This document shows, one piece after another, positions 1 to 57,119 of a stretch of DNA of 64,000 nucleotides (position 1 is its first letter; each line of letters starts with the position of its first letter). Below the pieces are notes generated by a model, which ran no database searches, was not told where the DNA came from, and saw only the letters and a program-made list of their open reading frames with translations. The position numbers and the translations under genes were made by a program. Source of the DNA: an uncultured Oscillospiraceae bacterium (GTDB lineage: Bacteria; Bacillota; Clostridia; Oscillospirales; Oscillospiraceae); contig CALWXF010000007.1 in NCBI GenBank assembly GCA_944385445.1, positions 11,976 to 75,975 on the forward strand, read 5' to 3'.

Positions 1-1214
1 TTCTGCTCAAGTACACCGAGAACGGCGTCACCCGTCAGGCCACCTGCACCTTGCTGGGTGAGGAGGAGATGACCCACGCCGCCGCCCTCATCTCCCACCT
101 CATCGCCTACTACCGGGACTACCAGGAGAGCGCCACCACCGACATCCTGCGCACCCTGGACGAGCTGAAGACGGTGGACGTGCACCAGTATGAGGCCTGG
201 TGCAAGATCATGGACTACTGGAGCTACATCAACACCGAGATGAAGGTGAACATCGGCGTCACGGCCGACGGTCTGCCCCAGGACGACAGCATGTGTATCG
301 TCATTCTGGGCTTCGCCCTCAACGACGACGGCACCATGAAGGAAGAGCTCATCCACCGGCTGGAGGTGGGTCTGGCCTCTGCCGAGAAGTACCCCAACGC
401 CTATGTGCTGGTCACCGGCGGCGGCACTGCTGCCAACAACCCCAACGTCACCGAGGGTGGCCTCATGGGTGAGTGGCTGCTGGCCCAGGGCCTGGACGAG
501 GATCGGCTCATTGTGGAGAACCGGGCCCCCGACACCGTGGGCAACGCTCTGAACACCTTCAACATCCTCACCTCCAAGTATCCCCAGGTGAAGAACATCG
601 TCATGGTCACCAGCGACTACCATGTGCCCCGTGGCTGCCTGCTGTTCTATTCCAAGTTCGTGCTGGCCGCCCTGGAGAGCGGACAGGAGCCTCTGACCAT
701 CGTCTCCAACGCCGGCTGTGACACCGGAAGCCAGGGCTATGAGACCATCGCCCTCCAGGCCTACGGCGTGAGCACCGTGGCTGGAGTGGACGTGCCCGCC
801 GACCAGCTGACCCTGTCCGCCCTTACCGGCATCACCGTCAAGCAGAATGCCCCCTACACCCAGGGCGGCAAGCTGGACCTCACCGTCACCGCCACCTATG
901 ACTCCGGCTACACCCGGGATGTCACCACGCTGGCCACCGTCTCCGACTTTGAGGCCGCCGGCGACACCGTCACCGTCACCTACCAGGAGAACAGCGTCAC
1001 CTGCGCCGCCACCCTCACCGTCCAGGGCGAGCAGCCCCAGGTGACTCCCACCCCCGCCCCCGAGGCCACCGACACGCCCCAGCCCACCAAAAAGCCTGAG
1101 GACGTGCCTCAGACCGGCGACGACACCACCGTCACCCTCTACGTGGTGACCCTGGCCGCCTCTCTGGCCCTGTTGGGGGGCGCCGTTGTGGTGCATCGCC
1201 GCCGTCAGCGCTAA
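1..1214 (+). CDS. 5'-truncated sortase-anchored surface protein with DUF218 (YdcF/ElyC/SanA-like) domain and Ig-like repeats
   Basis: Frame is open from nt 3. DUF218 motifs IVILG..RL..VTGG..E..M..G..E..DT.GNA..VTSDYH..R. Ig-like YQENSVTCAATLTV, echoed by YTENGVTRQATCTL at the window start. P/T linker, VPQTG, TM helix and RRRQR tail. Confidence 0.8.
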   Translation, partial: LLKYTENGVTRQATCTLLGEEEMTHAAALISHLIAYYRDYQESATTDILRTLDELKTVDVHQYEAWCKIMDYWSYINTEMKVNIGVTADGLPQDDSMCIVILGFALNDDGTMKEELIHRLEVGLASAEKYPNAYVLVTGGGTAANNPNVTEGGLMGEWLLAQGLDEDRLIVENRAPDTVGNALNTFNILTSKYPQVKNIVMVTSDYHVPRGCLLFYSKFVLAALESGQEPLTIVSNAGCDTGSQGYETIALQAYGVSTVAGVDVPADQLTLSALTGITVKQNAPYTQGGKLDLTVTATYDSGYTRDVTTLATVSDFEAAGDTVTVTYQENSVTCAATLTVQGEQPQVTPTPAPEATDTPQPTKKPEDVPQTGDDTTVTLYVVTLAASLALLGGAVVVHRRRQR

Positions 1215-1411: not shown

Positions 1412-1440
1412 TGGACAGGTGAAAATTGGTCTGTTATCAT
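1412..1440 (+). promoter_or_regulatory. sigmaA promoter of the GH20 gene
   Basis: TGGACA-N17-TATCAT with extended -10 TG. Confidence 0.7.
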
Positions 1441-1509
1441 AGCTATAAAGGCAATAGATTCGGCACACAGCCGACGGTTTCCCCACTGGGGGTGGAACTG
1501 TCGGCCATT

Positions 1510-1538
1510 GGGATGTTACTGTTCAATCAGGCATAACC
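1510..1538 (+). promoter_or_regulatory. RAT (ribonucleic antiterminator), BglG/SacY/LicT/GlcT type
   Basis: GGGATGTTACTGTTCAATCAGGCATAACC, 29 nt, fits GGATTGTTACTG-loop-CAGGCAAAACC with a compensatory A4-U25 pair; overlaps the terminator 5' arm. Confidence 0.85.
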
Positions 1539-1619
1539 ACATGTGTCACTGCTTCGGACGAGAGGAATGGGTGATGGGACCTTTAGGTTGAGGCAGTGGG
1601 CGTGTGGTTACTCTTTTTT
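1534..1619 (+). terminator. Leader terminator overlapped by the RAT
   Basis: Arms 1534-1555 and 1590-1610 (21 bp, 4 G-U pairs, 1 bulge) followed by CTCTTTTTT. Confidence 0.8.
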
Positions 1620-1686
1620 GGGCGGAACACATCCGGCGAAACTTGCCCTAAGTACAAGAGAAGACAAGAAGGAAGAGGTGTAACGT

Positions 1687-4600
1687 ATGAAGAAGTCCCT
1701 GAAGCGCGGACTGGCCGCACTGTTGGCAGCTGTGATGCTCACCAGCGGTCTGGCCGCATCGGCGGCAGCTCAACCCAAGGCGGACAATGTGAATCTGGCC
1801 CGCCTGGACGGCGTGGTAGCCACTGCCTCCGACACCGAGACCGACCAGTTCCCCCCCTCTGCCACCATTGACGGCAACTATGAGGATACCTCCCGCTGGG
1901 GAACCAACAACGATGGCAAGGGCACCACCGAGCGCTGGCTCCAGCTGGACCTGGGCGCCCGGTACTCCATCGACAGCTTTAAGGTGTTCTGGGAGAAGAC
2001 CAACATCCAGGACTACACCATTGAGACCTCCACCGATGGCTCTGAGTGGACCCAGCAGGTGGTGGTCACCGGCGCTGCTGCCGCCCGTGAGGTGGAGCAC
2101 CAGCTGGAGAACGCTGTGGTGGCCCGCTATGTGCGTCTGAGCGTCACCAAGTACGGCCAGTCCGTGTCCAACTGGTGGAACGTGGGCGTGCGTGAGTTTG
2201 AGGTGTACGGCAATGACGAAGTGGTCCCCGTCATCGGCAACCTGGCCCGCCTGGACGGCGTGGTAGCCACTGCCTCCGACACCGAGACCGACAAGTTCCC
2301 CCCCTCCGCCACCATCGATGGCAACTATGATGAGGCCTCCCGCTGGGGTACCAACAACGATGGAAAGGGTACCACCGAGCGCTGGCTCCAGCTGAACCTG
2401 GGCGAGGAGCGCACCATCACCGGTTTCAAGGTGTTCTATGAGAAGACCAACATCGAGGACTATGTGATCGAGACCTCCAACGACGGCCAGGAGTGGACCC
2501 AGCAGATCGCTGTGGAGAACGCCGGCGGCACCCTGGAGCCCGAGCACCAGCTGGCCGATGCGGTCACCGCTCAGTATGTGCGTCTGCGTGTGACCCGCTA
2601 CGGCCAGGCCGTGGCCAACTGGTACAACGTGGGCGTGCGTGAGTTTGAGGTGTACGGCCACATGCCCGAGGATGCTGGCAGCGATGTGGTGGAGCTCCCC
2701 GAGGGCACCAACATCGCCCGTCAGAACGGCGTGATCGCCTCCGCCACCAACGTGGAGAGCGGCACCACCTTCACCGCCGACAAGGCCCGGGACGGCAACA
2801 AGACGGATAAGCCCTCCCGCTGGGCCACCGACATCGGCGTGAAGAACCCCACCATCACCTACAACCTGGGCGCCACCTACCATGTGGGCAGCGTCATCCT
2901 CTACTGGGAGAGCAACAACCCCGACAAGTGGTATGTGCAGACCTCCATGGACGGGGAGAACTGGGACACCCAGGCCACCTTCGAGGGTAAGCTGACTCCC
3001 GCCACCGCCCCCATCCAGACCGTGAACTTTGAGAGCATTGTGGAGGCCCGCTATGTCCGGGTGTGGGTGGAGAAGTACAGCAGCGCCACCTGGAACAACG
3101 TGGCTATGTATGAGTTTGAGGTGTACCAGGAGGAGTCTGAGATCGTGGTCACCCCCGCCAACACCGCTGCCGCTCTGGCCCAGAGCGTCCAGATTCAGGA
3201 CGGCAAGGTGGTCATGACCGGCGAGGTGCCCGAGAAGTACACCGCCACCTGGGGCTGCAACTATGAGCAGGTGGTGGATGCCTCCGGCGCCATCCACACC
3301 CCCCTGGTGGATACCACCGTGGAGATCTCCGTCACTGTGCGTGATAAGAACGACACCACCACCTGTGGCTCTGCCACCGTGGAGCTGGACATCCCCGGCG
3401 TCAACTCCGCCAACGAGGGCAACAAGAAGCCCGCCGTGGTGCCTGAGCTGGCCCAGTGGTACTCCGCTGCCGACCAGAAGGGTCTGACCTATGCCATCAC
3501 CGCCGACAGCCGCATCGTTGCCGACGAGACCTATGCCTCCGTGGCTCAGGAGCTCCAGGCCGACCTGAAGGACCTGTTCGGCCTGACCCTGCCCATCGTC
3601 AACGACACTCCCAAGGCCGGCGACATCAGCCTGGTGTACCACGATCAGGCTGGCTTCGACAAGGAGACCTACAACATGGTGGTCACCGACCAGGTGGTCA
3701 TCCAGGCCAACGACGCCACCGGCGCCTACTGGGGCACCCGCTCTGTGCTCCAGGCCCTGCAGCTGTCCGGTAACCTGACCATCGCCCAGGGCACCGCCTG
3801 TGACTACCCCGAGTTTGAGAACCGTGGCTTCATGCTGGACGTGGGCCGTAAGCCCACCTCCATGGAGACTCTGAAGACCATCTCCAAGACCATGGCCTGG
3901 TACAAGATGAACAGCTTCCATGTGCACCTGAGCGACAACCTCATCTTCATGGAGGATTACGTCAACGCAGGTCAGCAGGAGCGGGCTTGGGAGTCCTACC
4001 AGGGCTACCGCCTGGAGTACTCCGATGAGGGCCTGACCTCCAAGGACTACTACTACACCAAGGCCGAGTTCAAGGAGTTTATGAGCTACTCCCGTGCCCT
4101 GGGCGTGGATATTATCCCCGAGCTGGACGTGCCTGCCCACGCTCTGTCCATCACCAACTACATCAAGAACGAGCTCAATCGTCCTGACCTGGTGCTCAAC
4201 AAGCTGGGCGGCAGCCGCCCCTGGTTCGACCATGTGGACATCAGCAAGCAGGAGGGCATTGACATCATCAAGGACATCTATGCCGAGTATATCGACGAGG
4301 ACATCTTTGATGAGAACACCATCGTGCACATCGGTGCCGACGAGTTCTATGACAGCCACCCCGCTTACCGTGACTTCCTCATCCAGATGATCGACTACAT
4401 CCAGAACGAGAAGCATCGTCAGGTCCGGGTCTGGGGCAGCTTGACCTCTATGAGCGGAACTCCTTCTGAGCACCCCTTCACCGCCGATGACGTGCAGGGC
4501 GCTCAGATGAACATCTGGAACACTGGCTGGGCCAATCCTCAGCAGATGTTCAACCTGGGCTTCGGCCTGGTCAACACCATTGACGGCTACCTGTACATGG

Positions 4601-6588
4601 TGCCCAGCGGCAACGGCAGCGTGGGCGGCTACGGCGACTGGCTGAATTCCCAGAGCCTGTACAACTCTTGGGAGCCCGAGAACATGGGCGGTACCTGGAT
4701 CCCCTCCGGCTCCGCTCAGATGCTGGGCGCCTGCTACGCCATCTGGAACGACAACATTGACACCCGTGCCGCTGGCATCAACGAGACGGATATCTATTCC
4801 CGGTTCGTGGACGCTCTGCCCTACCTGGGCACCAAGATGTGGGGCACTGGCGGCAACGGCCTGGACCGTGACTACGCCACCCTGAAGGCTGACGTGGCCA
4901 CCCTGGGCGCTGCCCCCAACACCAACCCCTATCACACCATCGACCTGGCCGAGGGCACTCAGGAGTACGCTCAGTATTCCTTCACCGACACCCAGGACCG
5001 CTCCGGCAACGACCGTGACCTGACCCTCAACGGTGCCTCCCTCACCGACGGCACCCTGACCCTCACCGGGGACAGCTCCTACGCCTCCACCGGTCTGGAC
5101 GTCATGGGCCCCAAGAACACCGTGTCCCTGCGGCTGTTTAAGGCCAGCACCTCCAACTCCGGCGAGCAGATCATTCTGGAAGCCGACGCCGCCTACGGCG
5201 AGACCACCGTGAAGGCCATTGCCAATGAGGACGGCACCTGGAAGCTGGGCTTTGCCCGTGAGCTGTACGAGTACGAGTTCGACTACAACCTGCCCTGCGA
5301 TGAGTGGGTGGAGCTGACCATCACCAACGAGGGCAACAAGACCTACCTGCTGGTGGACGGCCAGAAGATCGCCGCTGTGGGTTACTTCCTCCCCGACGAG
5401 CACGCCACCACCAACTTCATGGGTAAGACTGGCATCCAGTACTCCGCCTTTAACATCCCCGTGGCCCGCATCGGCTCTGAGACCAACTCCTTTGTGGGTC
5501 AGGTGGACGATGTGATGTTCTACGCCAACGGCGTGACTCCCACCGCCAAGCACCAGGTGACCTTCAACTCCATGGGCGGCTCCGCTGTGGAGGCCGTGGT
5601 GGTGGCCGATGGCCAGACCGTGGCTCAGCCCGAGGCTCCCGTGATGGAGGGCTACACCTTCGCCGGCTGGTACACCGACGAGAACTGCACCACCGCCTAC
5701 GACTTTGACACCGCTGTCACTGCCGACATCACCCTGTATGCCAAGTGGACTGCCAACGAGCCCGCCGACACCACTCTGCTCAAGGACATCTATGACAGAG
5801 CTGCGGCGGAGGACTACTCCAACCTCATCGACAGCGCCAAGGCCTACTATGAGAAGGCTCTGGCTGATGCCGAGGCCATCCTGGCTGATCCCGCCGCTTA
5901 CACCCAGGCTCAGGTGGAAGAGGTCACCGACCGCCTGCTCAACGCCGTGTGGATGCTGGACTGGGTCAAGGGCAACCCCGCCGCCCTCCAGCTCCTGGTG
6001 GACCGCGCCAACCAGATGATGGAGAACGAAGACAAGTATGTCTCTGACAACTGGCAGTTGCTGGTGGACGCTCTGGCCGACGCCGAGAAGATCCTGGCCG
6101 AGGCTGGCGACACCATGCAGGGTGCAATGGACGATGCCGCTGACGCTCTGCTGGATGCCATCCTGGCCCAGCGCTATAAGGCAGACAAGTCCATCCTGGA
6201 AGACCTGATCGGCAAGGCCGAGAGCATGGACCTGTCCAGCTACACCGCTGAGTCCGTGGCCGTGTTCCGCACTGCGCTGGCCAATGCCCAGACTGTCATG
6301 GCCGACGAGACCCTCTCCGAGGACGACCAGGCCGTGGTCAACGAGGCTGTGGCCGCCCTCAGCGACGCCATGAACGGCCTCACCGCCGGCGGCGCTCCCG
6401 AGACCACCGACAAGCCCGAGGCCTCCCAGAAGCCTGAGAACACCGACAAGCCTCAGGCCACTGAGAAGCCCGAGAAGGTGCCTCAGACCGGCGACTCCAG
6501 CCTGCTGCTGGTGTATGTGGCTGTCCTGGCCTCCGCCATGCTGCTGCTGAGCACTGCCGTGGTGGTGCGCAAGCAGACCCGCCGTTAA
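1687..6588 (+). CDS. Multimodular sortase-anchored GH20 beta-N-acetylhexosaminidase / lacto-N-biosidase-like enzyme
   Basis: Signal peptide; 3 F5/8-type C (CBM32) modules; GH20 motifs RGFMLDVGR, HVHLSDN, PELDVPAH, HIGADE; LamG-like domain; InlB B-repeat (VTFNSMGGS..GWY..LYAKW); FIVAR-like helices; VPQTG+TM+basic tail. Confidence 0.9.
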   Translation: MKKSLKRGLAALLAAVMLTSGLAASAAAQPKADNVNLARLDGVVATASDTETDQFPPSATIDGNYEDTSRWGTNNDGKGTTERWLQLDLGARYSIDSFKVFWEKTNIQDYTIETSTDGSEWTQQVVVTGAAAAREVEHQLENAVVARYVRLSVTKYGQSVSNWWNVGVREFEVYGNDEVVPVIGNLARLDGVVATASDTETDKFPPSATIDGNYDEASRWGTNNDGKGTTERWLQLNLGEERTITGFKVFYEKTNIEDYVIETSNDGQEWTQQIAVENAGGTLEPEHQLADAVTAQYVRLRVTRYGQAVANWYNVGVREFEVYGHMPEDAGSDVVELPEGTNIARQNGVIASATNVESGTTFTADKARDGNKTDKPSRWATDIGVKNPTITYNLGATYHVGSVILYWESNNPDKWYVQTSMDGENWDTQATFEGKLTPATAPIQTVNFESIVEARYVRVWVEKYSSATWNNVAMYEFEVYQEESEIVVTPANTAAALAQSVQIQDGKVVMTGEVPEKYTATWGCNYEQVVDASGAIHTPLVDTTVEISVTVRDKNDTTTCGSATVELDIPGVNSANEGNKKPAVVPELAQWYSAADQKGLTYAITADSRIVADETYASVAQELQADLKDLFGLTLPIVNDTPKAGDISLVYHDQAGFDKETYNMVVTDQVVIQANDATGAYWGTRSVLQALQLSGNLTIAQGTACDYPEFENRGFMLDVGRKPTSMETLKTISKTMAWYKMNSFHVHLSDNLIFMEDYVNAGQQERAWESYQGYRLEYSDEGLTSKDYYYTKAEFKEFMSYSRALGVDIIPELDVPAHALSITNYIKNELNRPDLVLNKLGGSRPWFDHVDISKQEGIDIIKDIYAEYIDEDIFDENTIVHIGADEFYDSHPAYRDFLIQMIDYIQNEKHRQVRVWGSLTSMSGTPSEHPFTADDVQGAQMNIWNTGWANPQQMFNLGFGLVNTIDGYLYMVPSGNGSVGGYGDWLNSQSLYNSWEPENMGGTWIPSGSAQMLGACYAIWNDNIDTRAAGINETDIYSRFVDALPYLGTKMWGTGGNGLDRDYATLKADVATLGAAPNTNPYHTIDLAEGTQEYAQYSFTDTQDRSGNDRDLTLNGASLTDGTLTLTGDSSYASTGLDVMGPKNTVSLRLFKASTSNSGEQIILEADAAYGETTVKAIANEDGTWKLGFARELYEYEFDYNLPCDEWVELTITNEGNKTYLLVDGQKIAAVGYFLPDEHATTNFMGKTGIQYSAFNIPVARIGSETNSFVGQVDDVMFYANGVTPTAKHQVTFNSMGGSAVEAVVVADGQTVAQPEAPVMEGYTFAGWYTDENCTTAYDFDTAVTADITLYAKWTANEPADTTLLKDIYDRAAAEDYSNLIDSAKAYYEKALADAEAILADPAAYTQAQVEEVTDRLLNAVWMLDWVKGNPAALQLLVDRANQMMENEDKYVSDNWQLLVDALADAEKILAEAGDTMQGAMDDAADALLDAILAQRYKADKSILEDLIGKAESMDLSSYTAESVAVFRTALANAQTVMADETLSEDDQAVVNEAVAALSDAMNGLTAGGAPETTDKPEASQKPENTDKPQATEKPEKVPQTGDSSLLLVYVAVLASAMLLLSTAVVVRKQTRR
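1792..2658 (+). repeat. Intragenic tandem duplication of a CBM32 module (447-bp period)
   Basis: 1792-2211 and 2239-2658 share long identical DNA runs; NLARLDGVVATASDTETD..VGVREFEVYG occurs twice. Confidence 0.9.
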
Positions 6589-6601: not shown

Positions 6602-6639
6602 AAAAAAGTACGGTCAGCTTCGGCTGACCGTACTTTTTT
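6602..6639 (+). terminator. Terminator of the GH20 gene (shared AAAAAAGTACGGTCAG family)
   Basis: AAAAAAGTACGGTCAGC-TTCG-GCTGACCGTACTTTTTT. Confidence 0.9.
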
Positions 6640-7068: not shown

Positions 7069-10000
7069 TTAGCTGCGACGACGGCGCACCGTCACCACAG
7101 CCGCCAGCCCAGCGGCGGACAGTGCCAGAGCACTGAATACCAGGCCCAGCTGGGCGGCGTCCCCGGTCTGGGGCACGTCGGTCTCCGGCTTCTGGGTGGC
7201 CTCAGGATTGGTGGAGGTCTCGGGGGCGGGGGTGGCGGTCACCTCAGGGGAGGGAGTGACCTCCGGGGAGGGAGTGGGCTGCTCCGTCTCCTGCTGGGTC
7301 AGCTCGTACACCGCCACGGTGCCGGACACCTCACAGGCGGCCAGCAGCATGGGCTGCCCGGTGGGACTCTGCTGGGCGGAGAGGAAGGCCAGACCCTCGG
7401 GGGCCACATCGCCGCCAGTGACCCACTTGTCCAGCTCGCCGTCCTCGTACACCTCAGAGCCGGGGATGATGGAGCCGAAATCCCGGGAATTGATATAGTT
7501 GACGTAGGTCACAGCATCGGGGTCGGTGACGTCGTACACCATCACGCCGCCGGTGCGCTCCAGAGCCACAAAGGCGTAGGTCTTGCCGTCCACCACGCCC
7601 ACGGTGACGCTCTCCGCCTCAGGGCCCTTCTTGCCGGAGCGGTCATCCAGGGCGGCGTTGTCGTTGGAGGTGTTGAAGTAGTCGGGGAAGTAGCGGGCGG
7701 TGAGGGACTCAAAGTCGTCCCCGCTGGTGAACACCTCCTGAATGCCATCCTCGGTCACGGCGTAGAGGGTGAAGGAGCGGCCGCCGAACAGGTAGTCCTT
7801 GGAGGAATCCAGGCCGTCATAGCCCTTGGCGCTCTCGGTTTTGCTCTCCTCGCCGAAGTACACCACTTTGCCGCTGATTTCACCCTCGGCGATGTTGCCA
7901 GCGGGGGAGGCGGCGCCCTTCTTGGCCTCGTTCTCGTTGAGGTAGTCCTCCCACTCCCGGCTGTCGCCCTCGTTGGCGCACACCAGGTAGGTCACCCCGT
8001 CCACCTCATAGGCGGCGATGCCGTCGGGCATGCGGATGCCCAGCACATTCTCATAGGTCTGGGGGTTGTAGGCCTCGTCCCCCTTGTCCAGGTCCACGGG
8101 GGTGACGGAGTAGTCCTCAAAGCCGCAGGAGTAGATGCCGGTGAAGGTGCGGGTGGTGAGGTCCAGCACGGCGATGGCGTTGGCCTCCTGCAAGGTCACA
8201 TAGGCCTTGGAGCCGGACACGGCGATGTACTCCGGCTCCAGGTCGGTGGAGGGATTGGAGCCCTGCTTCAAGATGATGTGGTTGGCGGTGAGCTGGTCCC
8301 GCTGGGTGTCGAACCCGTCAAAGGTCACCACCTGGGCGGTGCCGGTGGCCACGTCCACCACGGACACCGAGCCCTTGGGGTCGATGGCGTCGGCGGTGTA
8401 GCCCATGCGGGGTTCGCCCTCGTCGGCGGAGAGGACGGTGTTGTCATCGGCGAAGGTCACCATGTCCGGCTGCACGCCCACTTCCACCAGCTTGTCCAGG
8501 GTCAGGGAGCCGTCGGCGTTGCAGGTAAACAGGGCCACCCGGCCAGCGTCGGCGTAGCCGGCGGCCTGGAGGGCGGCGGCCAGGGTGGAACCGTCGGGGG
8601 AGACGGCCACAGAGGTCATGTCGCCGTAGGCAAAGGTGGGGTCGGTCTCCTCCACCATGGCCTTGATGTCAATGTCGTTGCCGTCCAGCAGGTCCACGGT
8701 GTCCTTCTCCTCCAGGGTCTTGAGGGGAATGGCGGTGAGCAGGCCGGACTGGCCGTTAACGGCGTAGGCCCAGCCGGTGGCGGCGTTGTAGGAGACAATC
8801 TCCATGACGCCTCCGTCCACGTTGAACTCCCCGGAGGTATACCCGGCGATCTTGGTCACGTCCAGTTGGGAAGCGCCGTTCTCCTCGCCCTGGGTCTGTG
8901 CGCCGCCGTCGGTGTTCTTGGTGACGGTGAAGTGGTCAATGGGGGTGGAGTCGGGGGTCTCGCTGTCCCCGCTGAGGTTGTACACGTTCACGGTGATGGT
9001 GTTCCCCTCCACGTCAAACAGGGCGTAGCTGGGGCTGTAGTCCTGGTTCCACTCCTGGTTGCCCACCGGCAGGTTGCCTGCCAGGTAGGCCTGAGAGCCA
9101 GTCTCGCCGTTGGCCAGCACCGGGTAGTCCACGTTGTTGGCCTTGTCCACGGACTGGAAGGGGGTGTAGTACTGCATGTCGGAGGCGCAGTTTCCGGTGA
9201 GGTAGATGGTGCCGTCGGGGTCATAGAAGGTGTCCAGGGCCTCGGCGTTGCGCTGGCCGTCCTTGAGCACATAGCTGCGGGAGTACACATGGTCGTGGCC
9301 GCCCAGAACTAAGTCCACGTCGAAGTCGTCCATCAGGGCCTCGAACCCGGCGTCCACATAGTTCTCAATGTCCGAGTCGGCAGCGTGCTTGGCCACGGTC
9401 TGGGTGGACTTGTGGTGGGTGACGATGAGCCAGTCATACTGGCCCTGATACTCCTGGGTGGCGCTGGTGAGGGTGCGGCGGAAGTTCTCCACCATGGCCT
9501 CGGCCTCGGAGTTGTCCTTGGAGGCGCTGGGCACGCTGGCGTTGTCCCCGTTTTCACCCTCCAGGTCGTCGTTGCCGCCGGGGTAGGCGCCGGTGTTCAG
9601 GGTGACAAAGAGCACGTTGTTGTAGAGATAGTAGTAGTTGCCCTTTGTCTCCATCTCCCGGCGCTCGGTGAAGTCGTACTGACCGTCGGCGTTGGGGGTG
9701 ACACCGTTGCTGTTACTCTGATTGGCAATCTCCTCGGCGGTGGCCTGGATGTAGTTGCCGTGGCTCTGGCTGGTGCCGCTGTTCTGGCCCCGGAAGGTGG
9801 TCTTCACCTGCTCCAGCAGGGTGTCGGTGCCGGAAAGGCCGTCCTGGGCCACCTCCATCTGGTTGGGGAGGTTGAAGTGGTCGGCGAACATGTAGTGGCG
9901 GTCGTGGTTGCCCACGGCGGGGGCGTAGGCGATGGAGGTCATCTCCTCAGGGGCAAAGAAGGCCTCGTACTCGCTGGACTTGCCCCAGCTCTGGTCCTCC

Positions 10001-10602
10001 ACCTGGTCCCCGGCGGACACCATCAGGGTGGCCCCGGCCTGGCCCACCACCTCCATCATCTTGGCCCATCCGGTCTGGTTGGAGCCGTCGGCAGAGTTCC
10101 AGCCGTCATCGTTGTGGGACTGGTCCTCCTTGATTTGGGGGTCACTGGTGAAGGCGAAGGTGAAGTTGTCCGCCTGGGGTGTGGTGTAGGTATAGACTTG
10201 GGACCAGCTCTGGCCCCCGTCGTTGGAAATGCGGTAGTCATAGCGGGTGCCGGGCTCCAGGCCGGACACGGTGGCCTTGCACACCATCTTGCCCGTGTCG
10301 GTGTACTTGCTCTCGTCCACCTTGGTGGGGGTGGTGAGCTCGGACACCGTGGCCTCCACCACCCGGCCGTCCCCCAGGGCGATCTGGGCGGCGCTGGTGC
10401 CGTCGGGGGCGTACCAGTTGAGGTTGATGGACGAGGTGGTCTCACCGGGCTGGATGGTCAGGCTGTCCACGTCAAAGCCTGCGGTGGAACCCCACAGAGG
10501 GGTGTTGGGGGTCTCCTGGGCAGCCAGGGCCAGGGGATAGATCCCCGTGAGCAGGGCGGCGCTGAGAGCCACGCTGGCCAGCTTGGTATACCGCTTCTTC
10601 AT
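7069..10602 (-). CDS. Sortase-anchored metallophosphoesterase (purple acid phosphatase-like FN3 + calcineurin-like) fused to a choice-of-anchor I beta-propeller
   Basis: Start MKKRYTKLAS after AAGGAGG; signal peptide; motifs SDPQ, AGDQVED, GNHD, GGHDH; C-half EIVSY..GVQPDMVTF..DLEPEYI..PDGI..NEGDSR..KGPEAES..LERTGG..PEG; VPQTG anchor. Confidence 0.85.
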   Translation of the reverse strand: MKKRYTKLASVALSAALLTGIYPLALAAQETPNTPLWGSTAGFDVDSLTIQPGETTSSINLNWYAPDGTSAAQIALGDGRVVEATVSELTTPTKVDESKYTDTGKMVCKATVSGLEPGTRYDYRISNDGGQSWSQVYTYTTPQADNFTFAFTSDPQIKEDQSHNDDGWNSADGSNQTGWAKMMEVVGQAGATLMVSAGDQVEDQSWGKSSEYEAFFAPEEMTSIAYAPAVGNHDRHYMFADHFNLPNQMEVAQDGLSGTDTLLEQVKTTFRGQNSGTSQSHGNYIQATAEEIANQSNSNGVTPNADGQYDFTERREMETKGNYYYLYNNVLFVTLNTGAYPGGNDDLEGENGDNASVPSASKDNSEAEAMVENFRRTLTSATQEYQGQYDWLIVTHHKSTQTVAKHAADSDIENYVDAGFEALMDDFDVDLVLGGHDHVYSRSYVLKDGQRNAEALDTFYDPDGTIYLTGNCASDMQYYTPFQSVDKANNVDYPVLANGETGSQAYLAGNLPVGNQEWNQDYSPSYALFDVEGNTITVNVYNLSGDSETPDSTPIDHFTVTKNTDGGAQTQGEENGASQLDVTKIAGYTSGEFNVDGGVMEIVSYNAATGWAYAVNGQSGLLTAIPLKTLEEKDTVDLLDGNDIDIKAMVEETDPTFAYGDMTSVAVSPDGSTLAAALQAAGYADAGRVALFTCNADGSLTLDKLVEVGVQPDMVTFADDNTVLSADEGEPRMGYTADAIDPKGSVSVVDVATGTAQVVTFDGFDTQRDQLTANHIILKQGSNPSTDLEPEYIAVSGSKAYVTLQEANAIAVLDLTTRTFTGIYSCGFEDYSVTPVDLDKGDEAYNPQTYENVLGIRMPDGIAAYEVDGVTYLVCANEGDSREWEDYLNENEAKKGAASPAGNIAEGEISGKVVYFGEESKTESAKGYDGLDSSKDYLFGGRSFTLYAVTEDGIQEVFTSGDDFESLTARYFPDYFNTSNDNAALDDRSGKKGPEAESVTVGVVDGKTYAFVALERTGGVMVYDVTDPDAVTYVNYINSRDFGSIIPGSEVYEDGELDKWVTGGDVAPEGLAFLSAQQSPTGQPMLLAACEVSGTVAVYELTQQETEQPTPSPEVTPSPEVTATPAPETSTNPEATQKPETDVPQTGDAAQLGLVFSALALSAAGLAAVVTVRRRRS

Positions 10603-10711
10603 ATCGTTTGGTTCCTCCTTATAATATTCCAAATTCTCACGGATGGAATTATAAGGGAAGCCCACAGGCGGCGCTATCTGCCTAGCGTATGAATCGTGTA
10701 AAGAGATGGTC

Positions 10712-10742
10712 AAAAAAGGGGCCGTGCATCACGCACGGCCCC
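10712..10742 (-). terminator. mutS terminator
   Basis: GGGGCCGTGC-loop-GCACGGCCCC-TTTTTT on the minus strand. Confidence 0.85.
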
Positions 10743-10746
10743 TGGA

Positions 10747-24365: not shown

Positions 24366-24523
24366 GGATTCCAGGCTGGAAAACGGACGGAGACTTCGTC
24401 AAGCCCAGATGTTTGTTTGCCAAACCGTTGTAACAGAAAACAAACTGTGGTAAAATAACCAAGCTACTTTGAATATGAGGAAAACGCCTGTCCTCTGGGC
24501 AGACGGTATAAGGAGATGTTTCC

Positions 24524-52108: not shown

Positions 52109-55100
52109 TTAGCTGCGGCGCTTGCGGGTCACATAGGCGGCGCCGGTGAGCAGGCTCACAGAGCCAGCCAGAGCAGCCACATACACCATCAGCTGAGCGG
52201 AGTCGCCAGTCTGAGGCACGTTCTCGGGCTTCTCGGTGGTCTGGGGCTTCTCAGAGGCCTCGGGCTTGTCGGTGGTCTCGGGAGCGCCACCGGCGGTGAG
52301 GCCGTCCATGGCAGCGGACAGAGCGGCTACGGCGTTGTCCACAGTGGCCTGATCGTCCTCAGAGAGGGTCTCGTCCGCCATCACAGCCTGAGCAGAGGCC
52401 AGAGCGGAGCGGAACACGGCCACGGACTGGGCGGTGTAGCCGGACAGGTCGATGCTCTCGGCCTGGCCAATGAGCTCTTCCAGGATGGACTTGTCGGCCT
52501 TGAAGCGCTGGGCCAAAATGGCGGTGAGCAGGTCGTCCACAGCGGTCTCCACGTCGCCCTGGAGGGCGTCGCCGTCGTCCATGACCTTCTGACCGGCGTT
52601 CAGAGCGTCCAGCAGGTCCTGCCAGCAGTCCTTGACGTACTTGCTCTCGTTGGCAACCATGGTCTCAGCCTTGGCAATGAGCACTTCCAGCATGGTCTTG
52701 TCGCCCTGCTTCAGGCCCAGAGCCCAGATGCCCTCCAGCAGGTTGTCCCAAGCGGTGTTCACCTGCTCCTGAGTGGCGTTGGGGTCGTCCAGCACGTCCT
52801 TGGCCTCGGCCATGGCCTTCTCAAAGATGTTCACGGCGGACTCGGCCACGCCGGCGGTGTCCAGGGTCAGAGCGTACTCATAGGTGGCCTGGAGCAGAGC
52901 CTTGTTGGCCTCCTGACCGGGCTGATCGGGCACACGGGCCTCCACAGCGGCGTTCATGGCCTCCACGGCGGTGTTCAGGGCCTCCTGGGTCACGGGCTCG
53001 CCCAGGGTGTTGTCGGCCAGAATGGCCTCCACAGCGGCGATGGCGTCGTTGAGGGCGGCAATGGACTCGGCGGTGTAGCCCTCCTCAGCAGCGGCGGCCT
53101 TGGCAGCGTCCACCTGAGGCTGCACGCCGTAGGTGTTCAGAGCCACGAAGCGGTCGCCCTTGATCTCGATCTCGTTGAGGTAGATGCCGTCGGTGTAGGC
53201 GATGCGGAAGGCGGTGACGCCCTTGAGCTGGTTGGCGTGGTAGACACGGGCACCGGTGTTGCTCAGGTCGGCATCATGCTCCAGCAGGGTCTCGCCATCG
53301 GCGGTGACGGCGTACACGCTCACGCCGTCCCAGGTGCCCATGGCGTTGTACAGCACCAGGTCGTTGGCCTTGGCGCTCTCGTAGACGTGGTACACCACTT
53401 CGCCCTCGCCGGTGGCCTGGACGAAGCTCATCACGTCGCGGTCATAGAGCTTGGCCTCGCCCACGCCGTTGACGGTGGCCATGGCCTTGGCCTCGGTGGA
53501 CACGCCGTGGAACTCGGCGATCTTCAGCCAGTTGGTGGAGCGGGACTCGGTGACGGTGGCACGGATGGCCTTGGCCTGGACGGTATCGAAGCTGACGGAA
53601 ATGGCACCGCCCACAAAGTCGTCGCTGTCCACGATACCCACAGAGATCCACTCGCTGTCGGCGTTCTGGTACTCCAGGTTCACCTTACCCTTCATGGCGT
53701 CACCATCGGTGGTGGTGGTGTACTCAATGCGGTTGATGCTGGTCACGGTGTTGTAGGTGACGGTGAGGTGGGTGCCCTTGGCCTGGCTGTTGAGCCAGAC
53801 GAAGGTGGTGTTGTTGTAGTCGTTGATGTTGCTGGTGGGGTGGTTGTTGGGCTCATAGATCTGAGCGCTGGAGGTGACGGAGGCGATGGACACCACCTGA
53901 GTGGCGATGGACACCTGGGTCAGGTCCACGGAAATCTCCTCAGCGGTGTTGTTCATCACACGCACATAGCGGGCCTGAGTGCCGGCGGCAAAGCCAGTCC
54001 AGGTCTTGCCGTCCAGGGAGATCTGGACGTTCAGGTCGTCCAGGCCGGACACGGAGGACAGAGCCACCAGCTGGGCCAGGTCGAACTGGACATAGGAGCC
54101 GGAGCCCAGGGTCACGGTCTCGCCGTCGGTGACGGTGAAGGTGTTGCCGGACTTAGCCATGGCCCAGCCCTCCGTGTTGGTGTCGGTGTAGACGAAGGGG
54201 TCGGAGGCGTCAGTGAAGAAGGAGCCGCCGGCCTGGGTCATGATGTAGCGGGCGAAGGGCAGGATGTACAGAGCGCCGGGGTTGGTCACATAGTTGCTGA
54301 TGGTCTGGCTGGTGCCCTGGCCCTCCAGGCTCTCCACCTTGTACTTCTCCAGGGTGTCGATGCCGTTGGAGAGGTAGATGGCGTTCATCAGGTGATCGAA
54401 GCGCCGGCTCTCCTCGCCATACATGGCCTGGATGCAGTCGATGATGATCTGGCTCATGTCATTGAGGCGGTACACCCAGGGGCGAATCTCCTCTTCCAGG
54501 TTCACCAGCTTGGAATCATCGCTGTCCTTGAGGGTGAGGATGAGCTGGCAGGAATCCACGATCTTCTGCATCTCCTCCAGCACGGCCGGATAGTTGGAGC
54601 TGTCCGACTTGTAGGCGTTGAAGATGGAGTTGATGTTGGTGTGGTCCTGGTTCTTGGCAGCGTGGCTGGCAAACACACGCAGGGCCTCCTGCATGGCGGG
54701 GTCATCGGTGTAGGAGGCAAAGGACTCCTCCCAGTTGCTCTGGACATCGAAGTTGGCGGTGTTCCAGGTGTAGTCGGCCACACCGTACAGGGCCACCTTG
54801 GAGGCCTCAGCCTGGTTCATGGGGTTGGACAGGACGCCCAGACTGGCGGTGACGTCCAGGTCGGTGGCATACACCGAGTCGATGCGGTTCATCAGCAGCT
54901 GGTCGTCAATGTTGTCGTTGACGGGGTAGTTCCACCACATGACGGGCTTCTTACCGGTGTACTGCTGGATCTTCAGCAGGTCGGAGTTGCGGATGGGGGA
55001 CCACACGCCGGAGCCGGTCATCATCATGATGACGTTGTTGTCCTGGTTCTGCTCCCGGAAGGCGCCCAGGTTGGTCTCCAGCTGAGAGGAGGAGCCAAAG

Positions 55101-56914
55101 TTCAGGGCGTAGAAGCTGGGCACATAGTAGGTGCCGGCCACATGATCGGCGGGGTTCTCGGAGCCGTTGTAGGTGTCCTCCAGGCGGCGCTGAATCTCAG
55201 CCATCATGTAGGCCTGGTTCTCGGAGCCACGCAGAGCCACACCGGTGTCGATGTCGTCCACGAACACGCCGAACTGACGCACGCCCAGATCGTACATGTG
55301 GGAGAACTTCTCCATGATGTCGTCAATGCCCTGCTCCACGCTGTCACGGCTGGTGAAGTTGATGCCGTTTTGCATGGCGGGGTGGATGGACCAGGCAAAG
55401 GAGATGTTGTTCTCGGCGGCAGCGGCGGTGATGGTGCGCATGTCGTCCTGGGTCATCATGCCGTAGAAGCGCTGCTCGTCGGTGATCTCGGTGGGATACT
55501 CATCCCGCCAGTTGCCCAGGTGATAGGGGTCGCCCTTGGGGCCGTAGACGAAGGTGTTCATCTTGTTGTCTTCCATGTACTCGAACAGGGAGATGATGTC
55601 CTCCACAGAGTACACCTTGCCGTAGAAGCCCTCGACGATGCCACGGTACTGCATGTTGGCATAGTCCTCGATGGTGGCGCAGGTCAGCTGCTGGCCGGCC
55701 ACGGTGTCCATGGCGTCATCCAGGGTGGCCAGGCCGTAGTACACAGCGTCGTCGTCCTCACCCAGGATGGTCACACGGCCATTGGAGTTGATGTCCACAA
55801 AGTGGGCGTCATACTTGGTCTCGCTGGCCACAAACAGGTCGTCGGAGTAGCCGGTGGTGTTGGTGTCCACGTTCTCGGTAGAGCCGTGCAACCCTAACGC
55901 CAGGGTGCTCTCCTCATAGTTCTCGGTGACGGTGTAGGACACGCCCTGCTTGCCCATGATCTCCTGCACCCGGCCCTTGGTGACATCGGTGATGCCGGAC
56001 TCATAGTAGACCTTGACGTTGTCAAAGTCGATGAGGTTGTACTGCATCTCCAGCTTCTGGGGGGTGGGGTTGAGATCATAGGTGTTGTCCAGATCAGTCT
56101 GGGACAGAATGGTCACGGGAATCTCCACGTCGGCGCTGCTGCCCAGGTAGGAGACGGTGGCGGTGAGGGTGGCCTGGGTGGTGGTCTCAGGCAGGGTCAC
56201 CTTCAGCATACCGTACTCCACGGTGAGGTAGGGAGAGTCGCTCTTCCAGGTGACGGTGGCGCCGTAGTCGGTGCTCTCCACCAGGGACACGTCCCGGCTC
56301 AGAGCGTCCCACTTCTGGGCGTTCTCCAGCTGGGTCTTGGCCTGGTTGAGCACAAACTCCCAGGTGTTGTTGTACACTTCCATCTCGTAGATGGACACGC
56401 AGGTCCAGATGTCAGGGAAGTTCTCGGTGACATACACCCGGACATAGCGGGCCGTGACCTCATCAAAGGTGAGGGTGCGGGCCTCCTCGGGCTGGCCGTC
56501 GGTGACGTTGGCCACGTCGGTCCACTCATTGCCGTCGTCAGAGACCTGGACCTTGTAGGCCTTGCCGCCGGACTTCTCCCAGAACAGACGGACGCAGTTG
56601 AAGGTGGTGGGCTCGCCGAAGTCCAGGCGCAGCCACTGGGGGTTGCTCTCACTGAGGGTGCCGCTGGACCAGCGGGTGTCCATGTTGCCGTCGTTGGCCT
56701 TCTCCTGGGTGAAGTTAGAGGTCTCGTTGGCGGACGAGGCGGCGGTGGCGGTGAGGGCCAGGTTGGGGCTGGTCGCCTCATTGGCAAGGGTGGCAGCGGA
56801 GTTGGTGATCTCGTCGGCCTGGGTCTGAGGCAGGGCAGCGGCATAGCTGACGGTGGACAGACACATGGCACACACGGTGACCAGAGCGCCGACTTTCTTG
56901 GTAATCTTGCGCAT
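52109..56914 (-). CDS. Multimodular sortase-anchored GH84 beta-N-acetylglucosaminidase (NagH/NagJ-like)
   Basis: Start MRKITKK after AGGAGG; signal peptide; CBM32; GH20b-like domain; GH84 motifs RGIVEGFYG, YGPKGDPYH, FVDDI, WWNYPVND; further CBM32-like and FIVAR modules; VPQTG. Confidence 0.9.
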   Translation of the reverse strand: MRKITKKVGALVTVCAMCLSTVSYAAALPQTQADEITNSAATLANEATSPNLALTATAASSANETSNFTQEKANDGNMDTRWSSGTLSESNPQWLRLDFGEPTTFNCVRLFWEKSGGKAYKVQVSDDGNEWTDVANVTDGQPEEARTLTFDEVTARYVRVYVTENFPDIWTCVSIYEMEVYNNTWEFVLNQAKTQLENAQKWDALSRDVSLVESTDYGATVTWKSDSPYLTVEYGMLKVTLPETTTQATLTATVSYLGSSADVEIPVTILSQTDLDNTYDLNPTPQKLEMQYNLIDFDNVKVYYESGITDVTKGRVQEIMGKQGVSYTVTENYEESTLALGLHGSTENVDTNTTGYSDDLFVASETKYDAHFVDINSNGRVTILGEDDDAVYYGLATLDDAMDTVAGQQLTCATIEDYANMQYRGIVEGFYGKVYSVEDIISLFEYMEDNKMNTFVYGPKGDPYHLGNWRDEYPTEITDEQRFYGMMTQDDMRTITAAAAENNISFAWSIHPAMQNGINFTSRDSVEQGIDDIMEKFSHMYDLGVRQFGVFVDDIDTGVALRGSENQAYMMAEIQRRLEDTYNGSENPADHVAGTYYVPSFYALNFGSSSQLETNLGAFREQNQDNNVIMMMTGSGVWSPIRNSDLLKIQQYTGKKPVMWWNYPVNDNIDDQLLMNRIDSVYATDLDVTASLGVLSNPMNQAEASKVALYGVADYTWNTANFDVQSNWEESFASYTDDPAMQEALRVFASHAAKNQDHTNINSIFNAYKSDSSNYPAVLEEMQKIVDSCQLILTLKDSDDSKLVNLEEEIRPWVYRLNDMSQIIIDCIQAMYGEESRRFDHLMNAIYLSNGIDTLEKYKVESLEGQGTSQTISNYVTNPGALYILPFARYIMTQAGGSFFTDASDPFVYTDTNTEGWAMAKSGNTFTVTDGETVTLGSGSYVQFDLAQLVALSSVSGLDDLNVQISLDGKTWTGFAAGTQARYVRVMNNTAEEISVDLTQVSIATQVVSIASVTSSAQIYEPNNHPTSNINDYNNTTFVWLNSQAKGTHLTVTYNTVTSINRIEYTTTTDGDAMKGKVNLEYQNADSEWISVGIVDSDDFVGGAISVSFDTVQAKAIRATVTESRSTNWLKIAEFHGVSTEAKAMATVNGVGEAKLYDRDVMSFVQATGEGEVVYHVYESAKANDLVLYNAMGTWDGVSVYAVTADGETLLEHDADLSNTGARVYHANQLKGVTAFRIAYTDGIYLNEIEIKGDRFVALNTYGVQPQVDAAKAAAAEEGYTAESIAALNDAIAAVEAILADNTLGEPVTQEALNTAVEAMNAAVEARVPDQPGQEANKALLQATYEYALTLDTAGVAESAVNIFEKAMAEAKDVLDDPNATQEQVNTAWDNLLEGIWALGLKQGDKTMLEVLIAKAETMVANESKYVKDCWQDLLDALNAGQKVMDDGDALQGDVETAVDDLLTAILAQRFKADKSILEELIGQAESIDLSGYTAQSVAVFRSALASAQAVMADETLSEDDQATVDNAVAALSAAMDGLTAGGAPETTDKPEASEKPQTTEKPENVPQTGDSAQLMVYVAALAGSVSLLTGAAYVTRKRRS

Positions 56915-57030: not shown

Positions 57031-57097
57031 AAAAAGACCAGACGACACCAAAGGGGCCCATATCACAGCGATACGCCCCCCTTTCGGTACATCTGGT
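57031..57097 (-). terminator. Leader terminator overlapped by the RAT
   Basis: Minus strand ACCAGATG-TACC-GAAAGGGG..CCCCTTT-GGTG-T-CGTCTGGT-CTTTTT. Confidence 0.8.
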
Positions 57098-57119
57098 TTT
57101 GCCCATACGGTAACAATCC
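57095..57119 (-). promoter_or_regulatory. RAT (ribonucleic antiterminator) with short apical stem
   Basis: GGATTGTTACCGTATGGGCAAAACC keeps both canonical ends GGATTGTTAC and GGCAAAACC; 3' end overlaps the terminator. Confidence 0.85.

Follow-up and report, generated by a model that had tools for sequence, protein, structure and literature searches.

A surface GH20 beta-N-acetylhexosaminidase gene in an Oscillospiraceae genome is preceded by a real, conserved attenuator, confirmed here, in which a ribonucleic antiterminator (RAT) hairpin overlaps the base of an intrinsic terminator. The leader is best interpreted as a BglG/SacY-type transcription attenuator on a monocistronic gene, most likely read by the CAT-PRD antiterminator (AT) encoded on contig C6 of the same genome; we assign this interpretation a probability of roughly 0.78. 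Oscillospiraceae are abundant gut commensals, and little is known about the regulation of the enzymes with which they forage on host glycans. In this study, the structure of the leader was analysed by sequence inspection, RNA folding and covariance modelling, and its RAT was traced through the genome and through related species, thereby relating the switch to the ATs and PTS operons that may govern it.

Materials and methods

The genome under study (G000) is a 2.15-Mb assembly of 37 contigs with 91% completeness. The window, that is, the whole stretch of 64,000 nucleotides that was analysed, corresponds to positions 11976-75975 of contig C7, and the GH20 leader occupies positions 1412-1686 of the window. 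A RAT covariance model (R1) was built from six 29-nt RATs, including four of G000 and two orthologues; the 25-nt RATs were excluded because MAFFT put their gap into the 3' flank. Genome-wide searching with a regular expression was noisy in GC-rich DNA and was replaced by R1. The relatives were searched with the covariance model and with a pattern scan that covered the genomes of 185,579 species; both were more sensitive than a DNA search with the 500-nt leader in 40 relatives, which returned only 3 genomes.

Structure of the GH20 leader

The features of the leader and of the related loci are listed in Table 1.

Table 1 Positions of the GH20 leader features, the second RAT locus and the AT operons (coordinates refer to the window)
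Feature	Position	Strand	Description
Sigma-70-type promoter	1412..1440	+	-35 TGGACA, 17-nt spacer, extended -10 TGtTATCAT
5' leader hairpin	1470..1505	+	between predicted start and RAT
29-nt RAT hairpin	1510..1538	+	GGGAUGUUACUGUUCAAUCAGGCAUAACC; covariance-model match, alignment
Intrinsic terminator	1534..1619	+	~23-bp interrupted helix (1534-1552 with 1593-1610), structured cap, CUC, U6 (1614-1619)
RBS of GH20 gene	about 1671-1678	+	GGAAGAGG; sequence
Surface GH20 beta-N-acetylhexosaminidase gene	1687..6588	+	1633 aa; Pfam scan, ORF list
3' terminator of GH20 gene	6602..6639	+	17-bp stem plus T-run
Anchored GH84 beta-N-acetylglucosaminidase gene	52109..56914	-	about 1600 aa; Pfam NAGidase 5.5e-84, F5/8-C, FIVAR domains
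Second RAT/terminator	57031..57119	-	minimal 25-nt RAT GGAUUGUUACCGUAUGGGCAAAACC (57119-57095); terminator ends in U5 (57035-57031)
C6 AT operon			RAT-AT-crr(EIIA-Glc)-ptsI-ptsH-[stem-loop]-EIICB (NagE-type)
C1 AT operon			RAT-AT-EIICBA
C19 AT operon			RAT-AT-EIIBCA(beta-glucoside)-GH1

The promoter shows 10 of 12 matches together with the TG extension, and shuffles of the region contain 0.2 such sites on average; transcription of the GH20 unit is predicted to start near 1447. The 5' hairpin has a folding energy of -27.7 kcal/mol in a fold of the 70 nt 5' of the RAT, and may serve as an mRNA stabiliser, an RNase site or a folding insulator. The RAT consists of lower, middle and upper stems separated by two asymmetric internal loops, fits the consensus GGnuUGUuACyg...crGGCAnrACC and was aligned by hand to six other RATs of G000; it is the proposed binding site for a CAT-domain dimer. 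The 3' arm of the terminator ends at 1610 and is followed by CUCUUUUUU. [quoted passage not shown]

Folding of the 250-nt leader gave -93.7 kcal/mol, with a z-score of -4.4 against dinucleotide shuffles. On its own, the RAT hairpin has little stability (-2.7 to -4.4 kcal/mol), compared with -38.9 kcal/mol for the terminator over 1510-1620. When the RAT nucleotides were blocked in the fold, a hairpin of -27 kcal/mol was left, which ended at 1605, 8 nt before the U-tract. An Rfam scan of the leader returned only noise (miRNA and lncRNA models, E above 1), as RATs have no family in that database. A reading of this DNA made previously from sequence only had placed a promoter, a 5' hairpin, a 29-nt RAT and an overlapping terminator with a U-tract in this leader, and the sequence, the folds and the covariance model found all four at those positions.

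The encoded protein comprises a signal peptide, three F5/8-type-C domains, GH20b and GH20 catalytic domains, a List-Bact repeat and FIVAR domains (Pfam), and its C-terminal anchor module is common to other VPQTGD-anchored surface proteins of G000. The next gene lies at 7069-10713 on the minus strand; this orientation and the GH20 gene's own 3' terminator indicate that the unit is monocistronic.

RAT inventory of the genome

Scanning the whole G000 genome with R1 yielded exactly 7 RATs with E values from 3e-8 to 6e-3, followed by a next candidate at E = 4.3. The GH20 RAT was the best of these matches (44.3 bits; genome-wide E = 3e-8), a score that is partly circular because this RAT is among the six training sequences. 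The three 25-nt RATs outside the training set were nevertheless recovered at E values of ~0.003-0.006. The regular expression, combined with a reading of the AT loci, pointed to six further RAT-plus-terminator sites in the genome; within the window it found the GH20 RAT and a match at 24418, which was rejected as a chance match. All modelled pairs are standard (100%) across the RAT classes, and both sides are changed at pairs 2-28, 4-25 and 11-20. At pair 4-25, the GH20 class has A4-U25 in place of the classical U4-A25.

Three of the 7 RATs lead the three CAT-PRD AT operons, each with its own terminator, and the other four are orphans that stand before GH20, two GH84 genes and a decayed surface-protein remnant. 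Both GH84 RATs and the RAT of the remnant, which lies on contig C9, are 25-nt versions of the C6 operon RAT, of the form GGAUUGUUACCG-loop-GGGCAAAACC; the GH84 RATs have an apical stem of 2 bp. One of the two GH84 RATs lies in the window (R1 26.3 bits, E = 0.003; RAT/terminator fold -36.7 kcal/mol) and is kept before GH84 orthologues in two relatives (G053 and G008). Its gene starts at the ATG at 56914, as judged from the start codon and the RBS, and a longer listed ORF spans the leader. The other RAT-led GH84 gene encodes 1981 aa (C1:307391). In the C9 remnant, the signal-peptide start is out of frame with a tail of FIVAR domains and a VPQTGD anchor.

The presumed trans targets are thus GH20 and two GH84 genes in G000, joined by a GH2 gene in one relative (G095); each encodes a signal peptide, and F5/8-C and FIVAR domains are further present in the three of G000. 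The R1 scan of the genome detected no RAT before the other GH20 and GH84 paralogues of G000. The sequence-only reading had regarded the GH20 leader as the first half of a putative regulon and had proposed a genome-wide RAT scan; the second RAT in the window, before the GH84 gene, bears out the former, and the scan revealed a small regulon of 7 sites.

Distribution among related species

RATs were detected in 10 of the 78 genomes of the GTDB genus. Relatives with a name include Ca. Enterenecus avicola (G041) and the isolates Pseudoflavonifractor capillosus An386a (G042) and P. sp. An85 (G002). A GH20-class RAT stands before GH20 orthologues (73-91% identity, tblastn of the downstream sequence) in G053, G071, G002, G012, G041 and G042. 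The pattern scan added Ca. Faecousia excrementipullorum (G094), two uncultured Oscillospiraceae/Eubacteriales MAGs (G096 and G097) and Ca. Avoscillospira (G095), in which the gene after the GH20-class RAT encodes a secreted GH2. A pattern match in Jeotgalibacillus (L081) was rejected; it has no terminator and is apparently a chance match within coding sequence.

Antiterminators and PTS operons

G000 encodes three CAT_RBD-PRD1-PRD2 proteins of the BglG/LicT family (282-285 aa), located on contigs C6, C1 and C19 and all above the Pfam cut-offs. The Pfam CAT_RBD/PRD search of the genome placed no AT gene within the 64,000-nt window; all three CAT_RBD matches are on other contigs, in agreement with the earlier claim that the window lacks an AT gene. 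CAT-PRD proteins and PTS genes had been expected elsewhere in the genome, and each of the three proteins does adjoin a PTS EII. This gene linkage is observed directly; by analogy, the linked EII would control each AT through phosphorylation.

The C6 EIICB scored 554.3 bits with the GlcNAc IIBC model TIGR01998, only ~1 bit above the cut-off of 553.2, and 419 bits with the glucose model; a stem-loop lies between ptsH and its gene, nagE, which is presumed to be co-transcribed across it. For the C1 EIICBA, the best model was glucose, not GlcNAc, with a score below the cut-off. The C1 EIICBA belongs to the glucose/GlcNAc family of PTS permeases, and its operon has the same architecture as glcT-ptsG or nagY-nagE. 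The C6 AT can be aligned with LicT structures (1tlv, 1h99 and 6twr) along its CAT domain and both PRDs; the four LicT histidines are kept in DH(I), ALH(L), (I)HLKF and (V)HL at H100, H159, H207 and H269. Its score of 267 bits falls short of the LicT equivalog cut-off (300), whereas the C1 and C19 ATs were slightly above it, and all three missed the GlcT equivalog NF047357 (218, 225 and 212 bits against a cut-off of 320). The NCBIfam matches included no model for NagY. On these scores, none of the three ATs of G000 would clearly qualify as a LicT orthologue.

Candidate reader of the GH20 RAT

The AT of the C6 operon appears to be the likeliest reader of the GH20 RAT, and we rate this pairing as somewhat better than an even chance. 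Co-occurrence in three genomes of other genera (G094, G096 and G095) is the strongest evidence for it. A single CAT_RBD protein is encoded by G094 and by G096, in both cases within a syntenic RAT-AT-crr-ptsI-nagE operon, and the RATs of either genome number only two, namely, that of the AT operon and that of GH20; G095 shows the same arrangement with the GH2 gene as the target. In a maximum-likelihood tree, the sole ATs of these three genomes cluster with the C6 AT at 100/99 support, to be read with some caution given the long branches, and those of G094 and G096 are only ~40% identical to it. The internal loops of the GH20 RAT (U7 U8 A9 / G22; A26 A27) are also those of the C6 class. Against the pairing, the GH20 RAT departs from the C6 operon's own RAT by G instead of A at position 3 and by the swap of the 4-25 pair. 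G071 was considered as a genome without a C6-type AT and was rejected as such: its contig C115 opens within ptsI, of which the codons for the final 25 aa of EI remain ahead of nagE, and the operon is broken by the contig end. The CAT_RBD search found no AT in G097, in which the GH20 RAT is present, and this also counts against the C6 AT.

The attenuator could instead be read by the C1 AT of the RAT-AT-EIICBA operon, alone or together with the C6 AT. C1-type ATs occur in 8 of the 12 genomes that carry a GH20-class RAT, and E. faecalis NagE is itself an EIICBA encoded directly after nagY (PMC12591593). Furthermore, G041 (91% complete) has GH20 and GH84 RATs, only a C1-type AT was found in it, and its ptsH-ptsI genes lie at a separate, unrelated locus. 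This pattern means either that cross-talk with the C1 AT is possible or that a C6-type operon is missing from the assembly, and G041 is a MAG of 150 contigs. Against the C1 AT, G094, G096 and G095 keep the glycosidase RAT without any C1-type AT; the RAT of the C1 operon differs from the GH20 RAT at class-variable positions (G8, G26 and C3); and the best model of its EIICBA is glucose, not GlcNAc. We consider reading by the C1 AT unlikely, with a slightly larger share if cross-talk is counted, and a few percent are left to any other reader.

The preference for the C6 AT strengthens the earlier suggestion of GlcNAc as the plausible cue, given that this AT heads an operon that would end in a NagE-type EIICB, albeit one only ~1 bit above its cut-off; GH20 would thus be induced by GlcNAc. 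A broader proposal is that the NagE-operon AT alone reads distinct RAT classes, namely, its own 29-nt RAT, the 29-nt A4-U25/G3 class of GH20 and GH2, and the minimal 25-nt class of GH84. Differences in affinity would then lead to a graded and ordered deployment of surface exo-glycosidases, and, since EI, HPr and EIIA(Glc) would be driven by this AT as well, overall PTS capacity would depend on it too; the outcome would be a loop that senses host glycans, amplifies itself and is shared among Oscillospiraceae. This proposal is tentative, and we think it rather doubtful in its full form. As a variant, the GH20 class might be common to the C6 and C1 ATs, thereby integrating two sugar signals.

Conservation of the leader structure

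The layout of promoter, hairpin, RAT and terminator recurs before GH20 orthologues in 9 other Oscillospiraceae species, and the taxa with the conserved leader are Pseudoflavonifractor, Ca. Enterenecus, Ca. Faecousia and uncultured Oscillospiraceae. The promoter pattern TRGACA-17-TGnTAnnAT is kept 5' of the GH20 orthologues of 9 species. A hairpin always lies between promoter and RAT in the orthologous leaders, with unrelated sequences and energies of -10.7 to -22.3 kcal/mol. The RAT is near-invariant among the GH20 orthologues outside the apical loop; invariance of its pairs is partly circular in the set selected by pattern, an objection from which the genus members found by the covariance model are free. 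An alignment of the terminator helix from 11 species had 87.9% of cells paired, compared with 28-47% when the partner strand was slid. Compensatory changes affected 6 pairs and 15 cells, and none of 500 shuffles reached as high a value. Thus, the earlier reading of the leader as an attenuator gains support from other species, in which the layout is conserved with covariation, and all parts of that reading open to computation turned out as predicted.

These data also bear on whether the leader exerts conditional control at all. It could terminate partially and constitutively, or serve the stability or processing of the mRNA, with its RAT likeness a relic, and the residual hairpin does stay very stable (-27 kcal/mol) with the RAT blocked. 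This alternative is highly improbable. In 11 species the RAT hardly changes, whereas the terminator arms diverge by compensated substitutions, a pattern that marks a site for a sequence-specific protein. The overlap between the RAT and the terminator base is kept even in G097 and G095, where the terminator sequences are wholly different and yet still start at the ACC of the RAT, and RATs are found only in those genomes of the genus that have CAT-PRD proteins.

Metabacillus and Amphibacillus also carry the GH20-type RAT class (GGAAUGUUACUG..CAGGCAURACC), inside classical AT-RAT-EIIBCA-GH1 operons, and Vagococcus has it before GH1. The RAT sequence alone is thus not partner-defining, and the A4-U25 swap is not specific for GlcNAc, as the same class occurs in these beta-glucoside operons of Bacilli. 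This occurrence would favour the LicT-like C19 AT of the AT-EIIBCA-GH1 operon as the reader, with GH20 answering to beta-glucosides, but that explanation is the least credible and the C19 type is excluded as a conserved partner, since its orthologues were found in G000 and G008 only, G008 has no GH20 RAT match, ten other genomes keep the GH20 RAT without a C19 AT, and the RAT of the C19 operon itself has A8 and G26.

Proposed mechanism

Binding, partner identity, inducer and termination itself are what we infer in the following model of regulation by the C6 AT. Transcription would begin at the conserved promoter, near 1447. By default, the nascent leader would fold into the terminator of about -39 kcal/mol that abuts the U-tract, and RNA polymerase would halt near 1614-1619; the weakness of the free RAT hairpin relative to this very stable terminator makes termination the expected default state. 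An active dimeric CAT-PRD AT would clamp the weak RAT hairpin, thereby withholding UAACC from the terminator stem, whose lowest 5 nt it forms. An intrinsic terminator stem must abut the U-tract to work, and in the classical sacB, licS and bglP leaders it is geometry, rather than loss of the hairpin, that abolishes termination. Only 5 nt of the ~23-bp helix overlap with the RAT, so the GH20 switch would likewise rely on terminator geometry and not on hairpin melting. The residual hairpin, which ends 8 nt before the U-tract, is not expected to terminate, and read-through into GH20 would follow.

For the CAT-PRD family, EII-dependent phosphorylation of PRD1 inactivates the AT and HPr-dependent phosphorylation of PRD2 activates it. 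The C6 AT would accordingly be inactive while the idle NagE-type EIICB phosphorylates PRD1, and active during GlcNAc transport. A positive loop may result, in which GlcNAc that surface hexosaminidases cut from host glycans enters through NagE and leads to more GH20, GH84 and PTS proteins.

Discussion

The proposed regulon is small, comprising one AT clade, few RATs and surface GH20, GH84 and GH2 enzymes, and it suggests GlcNAc as a cue for enzymes that trim mucin or N-glycans. NagY-type logic, which is experimentally known only from Enterococcus, would thereby extend to Clostridia. RAT scans can moreover predict the sugar-induced members among many paralogous surface glycosidases. The understanding of the antitermination mechanism itself is unchanged. 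The unusual details are the minimal 25-nt RAT class, the presence of EI and HPr in an AT operon and, probably, the reading of several RAT classes by one AT.

Comparison with known systems

The C6 operon resembles B. subtilis GlcT/ptsGHI in that an AT controls an operon with ptsH, ptsI and a glucose-family EII. This resemblance is architectural only; the gene order here is AT-crr-ptsI-ptsH-nagE, and the RAT lies 5' of the AT gene. The 3' half of the GH20 RAT, CAGGCAU, is one that we take to be common to the ptsG RAT. Control of secreted glycosidases is not known for GlcT.

Further parallels are B. subtilis SacY/sacB and LicT/licS (bglS). Their canonical 29-nt RATs also contain two internal loops and share nucleotides with the 5' base of a terminator, and the gene on which the AT acts in trans encodes an extracellular enzyme that supplies the cognate PTS with its product. 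Their substrates, however, are sucrose and beta-glucan, and the GH20 RAT carries the A4-U25 swap. Our literature search returned no AT paired with GH20, GH84, a hexosaminidase or mucin among the matches listed.

The closest counterpart is NagY of E. faecalis, a GlcNAc-induced AT of the BglG/SacY family. It autoregulates nagY-nagE by binding a leader in which a RAT overlaps a terminator, and in trans it binds the corresponding leader of hylA, whose product is a PL8 lyase anchored to the cell wall and equipped with F5/8-type-C and FIVAR domains (PMC9981650). The NagY regulon, as defined by RIP-seq and RNA-seq, takes in several glycosyl hydrolases (PMC12502629), and a 2025 review groups NagY/hylA with SacY/sacB and LicT/licS (PMC12591593). 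As in NagY/hylA, the AT proposed here on sequence grounds would be tied to a GlcNAc-type PTS permease and has a RAT overlapping a terminator before its own operon, and the trans targets are monocistronic, anchored, host-glycan-degrading enzymes with F5/8-type-C and FIVAR domains. The system described here differs in that it belongs to Oscillospiraceae (Clostridia) and is known from sequence alone, and exo-hexosaminidases of families GH20 and GH84, or a GH2 enzyme in one relative, take the place of the PL8 lyase as targets. Unlike nagY-nagE, the C6 AT operon adds crr, ptsI and ptsH, and its permease is an EIICB and not an EIICBA. The nagY RAT is described as poorly conserved, whereas the RATs of G000 are near the classical LicT/SacY consensus. 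The GH20 switch is a new example of the scheme shown in E. faecalis NagY/hylA, and not a new principle.

Surface enzymes with a common C-terminal anchor

A C-terminal module of approximately 250 aa, comprising FIVAR repeats and an anchor, was common to more than 25 loci across the whole source genome at 45–75% identity, which indicates that surface enzymes with sortase-type anchoring form a large family and exchange one common tail. It occurs, among others, in the GH20 enzyme, in the two GH84 enzymes and in the DUF218 protein encoded upstream of the GH20 RAT (ribonucleic antiterminator). The anchor motif was VPQTGD in the two cases read, namely, the DUF218 protein and a remnant on contig C9. 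This remnant was the only feature downstream of a seventh RAT and its terminator, and the RAT was identical in sequence to that of the in-window GH84 gene. The short remnant begins with a signal-peptide start (MRKNLKRMAL) in a frame different from that of its FIVAR-like tail, which ends in the anchor motif, a TM segment and RRR; a RAT-controlled surface-enzyme gene seems to have been deleted or frameshifted here. Next to GH20 lies the gene for a 1214-aa protein whose domains are purple-acid-phosphatase N, metallophosphoesterase and choice-of-anchor-I; no RAT was detected before this gene in the genome-wide covariance-model scan.

Coordinates of the features described
Feature	Location	Positions	Strand
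Locus with C-terminal module	Window	3-1214	
Locus with C-terminal module (GH20)	Window	1687-6588	+
Locus with C-terminal module (GH84)	Window	52109-56914	-
Neighbour of GH20	Window	7069-10713	-
5' leader hairpin	Window	1470-1505	
Seventh RAT, terminator and remnant	L011 (G000:C9)	1143-1645	
AT-crr-ptsI-ptsH, stem-loop, nagE	L013 (G000:C6)	7787-12864	
Fourth RAT class	L040 (G012:C10)		
Fourth RAT class	L041 (G042:C121)		

Antiterminator operons

The sole EI gene (ptsI) of the source genome and an HPr gene (ptsH) lie within the RAT-controlled antiterminator (AT) operon on contig C6, so the antiterminator encoded there would also govern general PTS capacity. The relative G041 differs, with ptsH-ptsI at an unrelated locus adjoining a PfkB-like kinase gene. 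Two other relatives, G012 and G042, have a fourth class of RAT (GACAUGUAACUGRUYAUGCAGGCAGGAUC) at the head of an operon with the order EIIBCA-GH1-AT, where the antiterminator gene is last, not first.

5' leader hairpin

In the leaders of GH20 orthologues, the hairpin that separates the RAT from the predicted transcription start keeps its position but not its sequence, and a short GGCRCA motif lies upstream of it in most species. RNase III cuts the 5'UTR of E. faecalis nagY (PMC12502629), so this hairpin could conceivably serve in RNA processing too.
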